10,418 bases of DNA, taken from the NCBI GenBank assembly GCA_016184305.1, contig JACPCX010000031.1, positions 1 to 10,418 of the forward strand. The letters run 5' to 3'. The notes under the pieces are model-generated. The model saw only the letters and a list, made by a program, of their open reading frames with translations. It was not told the DNA's origin and did no database searches. Positions 7,906 to 9,129 of this stretch are shown here, piece after piece. Source of the stretch: Candidatus Rokuibacteriota bacterium (GTDB lineage: Bacteria; Methylomirabilota; Methylomirabilia; Rokubacteriales; CSP1-6). Made by a program: the position numbers and the translations under genes. Every line of letters begins with the position of its first letter. Position 1 is the stretch's first letter.

Positions 7906-9129
7906 TCAGCCTCCGGTCTTGGCGGCCGGCACCCCGGCCGCAGCCGGATGGCCGTTGTCGTCGATGGCGCAGGCGGCGGCTCCCGCCTCCCGGTGGATGG
8001 ACAGATCCGTGATGCTCGGGTGCTGGCCGCACACGGGGCAATTGGGGTCGCGCCGCAGCCGGACCTCCCGGAAGCGCATCCCGAGAGCGTCGTAGGTCAG
8101 GAGCCGCCCGATCAGGGTCTCGCCCACCCCCAGCAGCAGCTTGATCGCCTCTGTCGCCTGCACCAGCCCGATCACGCCTGGGAGCACGCCCAGGACACCC
8201 GCCTCGCTTCAGCTGGGCACGAGCCCCGGCGGCGGCGGCGTCGGGTAGAGGCAGCGGTAGCACGGTCCCTGGCCGGGGGCGAAAACCGTCGCCATGCCCT
8301 CGAACTGGAAGATCGAGCCGTGGACATTGATCTTGCCGCCGAGGTAGCAGGCGTCGTTGACCAGGTAGCGGGTGTCGAAGTTGTCCGAGCCGTCCACCAC
8401 CAGGTCGTAGTCCTTGATGATGTCCATCACGTTGTCCACGTCGATGCGCATGGGCAGCGGGATGACGGTGACGTCGTGGTTGAGCGCCCGGATCATCTCG
8501 CTGCCCGACTCCACCTTCGGACGGCCCACGTTGGCGGTGGTGTGGAGGATCTGGCGCTGAAGGTTCGAGACATCCACCACGTCACCGTCCATGAGCCCGA
8601 TGGTTCCCATCCCGGCCGCGGCCAGGTAAAGCGCCGTGGGAGAGCCGAGTCCCCCTGCGCCGATCAGGAGCACCTTGGAGCGGAGGAGCTTGCGCTGGCC
8701 CTTCTCGCCCACTTGCGGCAGGAGGAAGTGGCGGCTGTAGCGCTGGATCTGCTCGGTCGAGAGCGGCTGGTCCTTGACCACGGGGAGCCCCGACTGGGCC
8801 CACTTCTGGAAGCCCCCCTGAAGGTTGACCACGTGCTCGTAGCCGAGTTCCTTGAGCTGGCGGGCGGCGAGCACGGAGCGCAGGCCCGTCTGGCAGTAGA
8901 GGACGATGGGTGTCGAGGGCTCCGCGGCCACGGTGCCGATGCGGAACTCGAGGAAGCCGCGGCTGATATTGGCCGAGCCCTCGATGTGGCCGTCGCGGTA
9001 CTCGTCGGGATCCCGCACGTCCACGACCACCACGGGCTCGCCCGCGTCGAGCCGCTTCTTGAGCTCGGCCGGTCCCTGCTCGGGGATGACCTGCCTGGCT
9101 TCGGCCAGCATCTGCTTGAGCGTTTTCAT
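7906..9129 (-). CDS. moeB: Rhodanese-MoeB/ThiF-family fusion (sulfur-carrier adenylyltransferase/sulfurtransferase, MoeZ-like), 407 aa, probable selenoprotein (UGA codon 307)
   Basis: N-terminal rhodanese domain (DVRDPDEY...GHI; LYCQTGLRS), then RYSRHFLLPQVG, GAGGLGS, SNLQRQILH, DGSDNFDTRY and CYRC. In-frame TGA at 8211-8209 in PPPPGLVPS*SEAGVLGVLPGVIG. The same frame continues as track ORF 7906..8187 with the second Zn motif CPVC. AAGGA SD-like sequence upstream of ATG 9129. Confidence 0.92.
8174..8211 (-). promoter_or_regulatory. In-frame UGA plus candidate bacterial SECIS hairpin
   Basis: mRNA reads UGA AGCGAGGCGG GUG U CCUGGG CGUGCU CCCAGG CGU. This gives a perfect 6-bp stem (8194-8189 with 8182-8177), a 6-nt loop with G at position 2, a bulged U, a weak G-C/U-G/G-U lower stem and 20 nt between the UGA and the loop. 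Confidence 0.7.

Follow-up and report, generated by a model that had tools for sequence, protein, structure and literature searches.

The analyzed DNA, a stretch of 10,418 nucleotides (hereafter, the window), carries a MoeB-type gene at positions 7906–9129 of the minus strand. The gene is a single 407-codon frame with one internal stop, a TGA at 8211–8209 (codon 307). Translation of 7906–9183 (−) placed the two ORFs 8209..9183 (−) and 7906..8187 (−) in this frame, with the stop lying in ...PPPPGLVPS*SEAGVLGVLPG..., as the original prediction had read it. The encoded rhodanese-ThiF/MoeB enzyme (407 aa) is complete and runs from the ATG at 9129–9127 to a terminal TGA at 7908–7906; this ATG was preferred over the upstream GTG at 9183 because the orthologues all begin with MKT.... 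The rhodanese domain is N-terminal (residues 20–112, 8794..9072 (−); Pfam E 1.4e-22) and has the active-site loop C79-QTGLRS, in which C79 (codon 8895–8893), G82, L83, R84, and S85 are invariant in an alignment with public homologues. The ThiF/MoeB adenylation domain that follows (PF00899, residues 131–366, 8032..8739 (−); Pfam E 7e-83) contains two CxxC motifs, C290/C293 (8262–8251) and C364/C367 (8040–8029); the second, a zinc motif, is downstream of the TGA and is invariant in the alignment. In the C-terminal tail, a conserved Cys387 (7969..7971 (−)) follows a DLSIH motif; orthologue alignments show it in all 27 aligned orthologues and at least 90% conserved when Cys forms are included, with the surrounding tail being variable.

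As a whole, the protein matches NCBIfam NF006444 (PRK08762, MoeB) with 533.3 bits (cut-off 449), residues 4–375 being aligned to the 387-position model, and scores 404.5 bits against NF005902 (MoeZ), which is under the cut-off of 647. The in-frame UGA (8209..8211 (−)) falls on the crossover-loop Cys site of MoeB, ThiF, and Uba4. The column aligns with the single loop Cys of E. coli MoeB (1jw9), E. coli ThiF (1zfn/1zud), and Chaetomium Uba4 (6yub), which bears out the earlier claim that these proteins have a conserved Cys here. The extreme C-terminus of the enzyme (window 7906–7920; orthologue loci L020–L049) reads ...K(T/A)GG or ...R/KxGG in 10 of 27 orthologues; it resembles the Gly-Gly end of sulfur-carrier proteins, although neither family f4 nor the Cys forms conserve it.

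An NRPS cluster is located directly downstream of the MoeB-type gene on the same strand (window 2–7508 (−)) and consists of a free-standing carrier protein (7152–7508 (−)), an A-T-C-A-T protein of 1697 aa (2062–7155 (−)), and a C-A... protein that runs off the window (2–2065 (−)). The original prediction had cautioned that neighboring genes carry lesions, but both NRPS ORFs, 2062..7155 and the open-ended 2..2065, are intact and encode complete sets of domains. When the flanks of 13 genomes were compared, NRPS genes adjoined the MoeB-type gene only in the source genome (G000) and in G003, where the cluster has one module fewer, and not in G001 or nine other relatives. A functional link between the two was rejected, since the adjacency is not conserved. 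What the family does conserve beside the MoeB-type gene is a divergent nucleotidyl-transferase/dTDP-sugar gene set, for which no link to that gene is evident either. A 36-nt G+C-rich unit occurs twice in tandem in the divergent intergenic region directly before the MoeB start codon (window 9140–9213); the copies lie 38 nt apart with 92% identity, and each has GGGCGGGC...GCCCGCC-type self-complementarity and no Rfam match. An Rfam scan of window 7500–9500 on both strands (E≤1) found no match and no Moco riboswitch.

To assess conservation of the TGA, 40 relatives were searched, and full-length matches (65–100% identity) were found in 33 genomes, the source genome counted; 32 of these have the in-frame TGA, with none in G009. 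Codon 307 was read directly in 30 orthologous loci (65–96% identity), where it is TGA in 29 and TGC in one, always in the context GLVPS-x-[SNG]EAGVLG. In a phylum sample of 251 genomes, 167 had a match at E≤1e-120 and, among the matches listed (21 more exist), all but eight carry an in-frame TGA, counted as such rather than codon by codon. Of these eight, one stops short of codon 307 and three are additional copies in genomes that also have a TGA copy; two of the TGA-containing matches (G115 and G238) come from genomes flagged as unpublished. The phylum matches are distributed over families f1 (140/158) and f4 (18/21), plus f2, f3, f6, and f10, with none in f7, f8, and f13.

Full-length public homologues present the counterpart: 16 of 17 have Cys at the TGA column, and these Cys forms (~400 aa, 74–88% identity) retain the tail Cys. 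The pattern foreseen for a Sec gene, i.e., TGA kept among relatives with Cys in other homologues, is the one that was found. Public protein sets also contain dozens of truncated entries of 306 aa (86–99% identity), some of them named MoeB of Candidatus Rokubacteria, so standard annotation does cut the gene short, as had been anticipated. Regarding the base itself, contigs bridge the TGA site in three public runs (X1, X5, and the RNA library X17), and no alternative base at 8209–8211 is among the differences listed (111 more exist) for the four public runs whose contigs were compared to the gene, which come from three DNA studies and one RNA library; this agrees with the predicted base but is a weak test, because such contigs drop rare variants, and it is uninformative on expression level.

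Selection was estimated from 27 aligned orthologues; the remaining three of the 30 loci were left out, two because the start-motif pattern missed them and one because a contig end cuts it. For codons 308–379, downstream of the TGA, dN/dS was 0.13 within the genus (6 pairs), 0.16 within the family (171 pairs), and 0.18 for the window sequence against 26 others, compared to 0.05, 0.18, and 0.25, respectively, upstream of the TGA. Only the last ~25 residues are variable (dN/dS 0.23–0.67). Selection is hence not relaxed after the TGA, contrary to what would speak against the original prediction, and these values support continued translation beyond the TGA with purifying selection acting on the downstream part.

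A SECIS-like hairpin (8177..8194 (−)) was recognized with RNAalifold and from codon use. Its stem starts 14 nt past the UGA and is formed by the 5' arm CCUGGG (8194–8189) and the 3' arm CCCAGG (8182–8177), which enclose the loop CGUGCU (8188–8183); the element overlaps codons V312–G318 in the GVLGVLPG motif. All six pairs are kept in 28/28 Sec forms, the sole change being U-A to U-G in three sequences, and RNAalifold found no compensatory changes among these forms, only invariance and this one G-U change. Constraint at the RNA level is visible in codon use: the 26 Sec forms compared share 184 amino-acid columns that are invariant and degenerate, a single codon is used in 24 of these, and the only single-codon columns with at least four synonymous codons are V312–L316 (GTC CTG GGC GTG CTC), invariant in 26/26. 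Pro317 is encoded by the G+C-poor CCA in 24 of the 26 and by CCG, which is G-U compatible, in the other two. The sole Cys orthologue (L032) departs at two synonymous sites inside the hairpin codon block. Folding energy is not unusual for a sequence of 70% G+C (z = 0.49). The element has a downstream stem-loop with a guanosine in the apical loop CGUGCU, in line with the spacing and loop requirements of the bSECIS model, and it shows no covariation and no significant energy z-score. The freeze of synonymous sites appears to indicate an RNA signal and not a translational restart.

Searches for the Sec machinery gave a mixed result in the source genome, an 88.8%-complete MAG of 239 contigs with 26 tRNA genes found and a size of 3.2 Mb (genus-mates: 4.7–5.4 Mb). 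The sel genes expected under the original prediction were recovered in part: selD is present (TIGR00476, 345.7 bits vs. a cut-off of 125) and itself has an in-frame TGA in ...ACAGUASK..., whereas selA, selB, and selC (tRNA-Sec) were not found in this MAG, the tRNA-Sec search having scored 150 of 520 candidates, and are present in genus-mates. A 96-nt 'tRNA-???' with a four-base anticodon that ARAGORN placed on contig C36 was rejected as tRNA-Sec, with nothing found there by Rfam at E≤0.01. Among 41 related genomes, selA was over the cut-off in 36, including all three genus-mates; tRNA-Sec was over the cut-off in four of five genomes checked, and selB likewise in four of five. In G002 and G003, selC, selA, and selB are adjacent; therefore, one missing contig would remove all three from the source genome. 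When 19 kb around the sel locus of G003 was compared to the source genome by blastn, only paralog-level or scattered matches to the flanks were found, none near sel genes, so that an assembly gap and gene loss are not distinguished there. Genome G010 (98% complete) has the TGA form and no selA match. In the near-complete relative G034 (contig C7, 158213–163794), a ThiS/MoaD-family gene (163570–163794) lies <1 kb from tRNA-Sec (162734–162827), beside selA and selB.

TGA is the commonest stop in the source genome, ending 734 of 1116 long high-GC3 ORFs; therefore, the code is standard, with no reassignment. A GC3-based genome-wide screen for TGA-interrupted frames returned 494 candidates and was far too noisy, and 12 frames were picked by hand. 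Six of them match selenoprotein-type families with the TGA in the Sec-motif region, all under curated cut-offs. These candidate selenoprotein genes, supported by motif and family-model matches (C80:2592–3143, C81:2713–3300, C200:5184–5780, C155:3–1562, C10:21215–22357, and C224:6574–7500), have the TGA in WUPYC, UGAC/UGSC, WUGC, and VUPVC motifs and comprise three UGSC, one WAxxUGC ResA-like, one PrdB-like, and one Prx/SelL-related member. Of the other six frames, L098 has an amidase match confined to the region downstream of the TGA, and five match nothing.

Judged from these sequence data, the gene very probably encodes one full-length selenoprotein of 407 aa, in which UGA 307 would be decoded as Sec via SelB/tRNA-Sec and the downstream hairpin. 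The conserved TGA, the downstream dN/dS, and the hairpin constraint all favor the E1-like enzyme with Sec307 plus a rhodanese Cys that had been proposed. Several other explanations were weighed against it. TGC and TGA differ by one substitution and selA, selB, and selC were not found in the assembly, as might be expected of a pseudogene recently inactivated by a TGC-to-TGA nonsense mutation. This explanation is extremely unlikely, however, given that TGA persists in 29/30 orthologues down to 65% identity and in nearly all matches listed across the order, that downstream dN/dS is 0.13–0.18, and that the second zinc CxxC is invariant although it lies past the TGA. For a sequencing or assembly error at 8209, which a MAG of 239 contigs might contain, the probability is practically negligible: the same base occurs in independent assemblies of 28 other genomes, and no other letter is among the differences listed at 8209–8211 for contigs of three DNA studies and one RNA library.

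Public gene callers give exactly the pieces that would be produced by a split or truncated gene, i.e., a functional 306-aa product, alone or together with a 93-aa C-terminal piece whose translation starts anew at the GTG at 8187, and the dozens of 306-aa entries include proteins named MoeB. Nevertheless, SEAGVLG, the stretch of seven codons that separates the TGA from the GTG, is conserved at the protein level and forms part of the ThiF motif, the Cys forms have an uninterrupted ThiF domain, and the frozen synonymous sites point to an RNA signal rather than a restart, making such an arrangement highly unlikely; partial termination at the UGA may occur in vivo. It is also very unlikely that the UGA is read as a standard amino acid (near-cognate Cys/Trp, or through a reassigned code). 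Sequence cannot tell the inserted residue, and the Sec machinery not found in this assembly would fit such a reading, but TGA is the most used stop (734/1116 long ORFs) and also ends the MoeB-type gene itself, selD and other selenoprotein families of this genome have TGA at Sec motifs, and the genus-mates have selA, selB, and selC.

Under the Sec reading, we infer that UGA 307 is decoded by a bacterial SelB/tRNA-Sec system directed by the short hairpin 14 nt downstream, and that the product is a ThiS/MoaD-type sulfur-carrier adenylyltransferase fused to an N-terminal rhodanese sulfurtransferase. Sec307 would take the place of the crossover-loop Cys that, in Uba4, forms a covalent acyl intermediate with the C-terminal glycine of the carrier. 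The ThiF domain would adenylate the C-terminal Gly-Gly of a carrier, and Sec307, by analogy with Uba4, would then attack the adenylate to give a selenoester or, alternatively, carry sulfur as a selenosulfide. A persulfide on the rhodanese Cys79 could supply the sulfur, yielding the carrier thiocarboxylate, and the tail Cys387 may resolve a Se-S intermediate, which makes it a candidate resolving thiol.

The carriers that the enzyme might serve were sought in the source genome, which has six ThiS/MoaD-family genes with Gly-Gly motifs. These are a ThiS carrier beside ThiG-ThiE-ThiO, a MoaD-MoaE fusion carrier (C51:5306–6037 (−); L084:3060–3791), a CysO-like carrier between a CysM-like PLP enzyme and a JAB peptidase, a TtuB-like carrier beside TtuA, a ThiS/MoaD-type carrier beside an aldehyde:ferredoxin oxidoreductase, and an orphan ThiS/MoaD-type carrier with no informative neighbor. 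The fusion is a 243-aa frame (ThiS 21–97, MoaE 110–222) with an internal ...PPVSGG motif and looks like one that needs cleavage after the Gly-Gly. On the same contig, a GTP cyclohydrolase I gene (C51:7110–8645 (−); L084:4864–6399) has a mid-protein LAGLIDADG-type domain (residues ~286–324), suggesting an intein. Sec-MoeB is the only ThiF-family gene found in the source genome and in G001; one further weak match each was found in G003 and G024, and G034 has a strong Cys paralogue that adjoins its own ThiS-family gene. A sole E1 with six carriers suggests a shared hub E1, in a genome that is incomplete. We propose only tentatively, as somewhat the weaker bet, that in this lineage all ThiS/MoaD-type carriers depend on the Sec rhodanese-MoeB as their one hub E1, which would work through a Cys79-Sec307-Cys387 sulfur/selenium relay. 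If so, a single selenium-dependent site would serve molybdenum cofactor and thiamin synthesis, carrier-dependent cysteine synthesis, and tRNA thiolation alike, and, were the enzyme the sole activator of sulfur carriers, several cofactor pathways would be controlled together by the supply of selenium.

The value of the finding lies in an annotation correction and a natural Sec/Cys pair for enzymology, and not in a new kind of system. The 306-aa calls lose the second zinc motif and the tail. Going by the matches listed, an entire order of soil/groundwater bacteria normally carries Sec-MoeB with an N-terminal rhodanese. Sec and Cys forms that pair naturally at 74–88% identity would offer a clean system in which to study the contribution of Sec to E1-type acyl-transfer chemistry.

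In ThiF, Cys184 is reported to form an acyl-disulfide, and in Thermus thermophilus one E1, TtuC, is shared by TtuB, MoaD, and ThiS and is not known to have a fused rhodanese or Sec. Like TtuC, the enzyme described here is the one ThiF-family E1 found in its genome, where several sulfur-carrier systems are present. The Cys forms of NF006444/PRK08762 MoeB share its end-to-end architecture with the N-terminal rhodanese, the difference being that Sec replaces the crossover-loop Cys here; no SECIS constraint is expected in those Cys forms. Uba4/MOCS3 and MoeZ likewise combine adenylation and rhodanese domains in one chain (best PDB match: 6yub, E 3.5e-56); however, Uba4 has a C-terminal rhodanese, a long flexible linker, and Cys, whereas here the order is reversed, the linker is short, and Sec is predicted. 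E. coli MoeB (1jw9, E 3.8e-56) and ThiF (1zud/1zfn, E 1.9e-54) align over the adenylation fold, both CxxC motifs, and the loop Cys but, unlike the enzyme here, are without a rhodanese domain. According to the available portions of two Uba4 studies, the carrier Urm1 becomes linked as a thioester to the crossover-loop Cys (ScUba4 Cys225, CtUba4 Cys202), and the rhodanese persulfide then converts this thioester to the thiocarboxylate (PMC6007339; PMC7527816). MoaD and ThiS, as described in the accessible part of the latter, are simply adenylated, with no required thioester (PMC7527816).

The original prediction stated that Sec-containing MoeB homologues have been reported in metagenomic selenoproteome surveys, and this is correct to the extent that the consulted portions of those surveys cover it. 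A 'Molybdopterin biosynthesis MoeB protein' was predicted as a selenoprotein family in 2005 by Zhang, Fomenko & Gladyshev from 11 Sargasso Sea sequences (PMC1088965), the GOS survey of 2008 added 19 MoeB selenoprotein sequences (PMC2398784), and the family is listed in reviews of 2022 and 2026 (PMC9312934, PMC13188914), again going by the parts available. Our literature search found no biochemical characterization of the family, and a full-text search for Rokubacteria with selenocysteine returned nothing on this protein in titles and the beginnings of abstracts. In the part of the PMC1088965 supplement that gives Sargasso AACY01471790, Sec occupies the same ThiF-domain site (...CYRCLY..PPP..LVPSuAVAGVLGVLPG...), and a hairpin with the same loop, CGTGCT, lies over the GVLGVLPG codons, 18 of 21 hairpin-region bases being identical by eye. 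That sequence has a C-terminal rhodanese (the Uba4/MoeZ order), in contrast to the N-terminal rhodanese with a short linker here, and the conserved tail Cys387 is a feature of the present lineage's protein that sets it apart from the Sargasso example; domain order is not stated as defining for the family in the portions of PMC1088965 at hand. Members of the family were catalogued from marine metagenomes, whereas this lineage is from soil and groundwater, its closest proteins being labeled Candidatus Rokubacteria. By sequence comparison, the predicted Sec site and signal match those already described, and the domains are arranged in a different order. The rhodanese-MoeB gene is a further, soil/groundwater member of the known MoeB selenoprotein family and is not new in kind.
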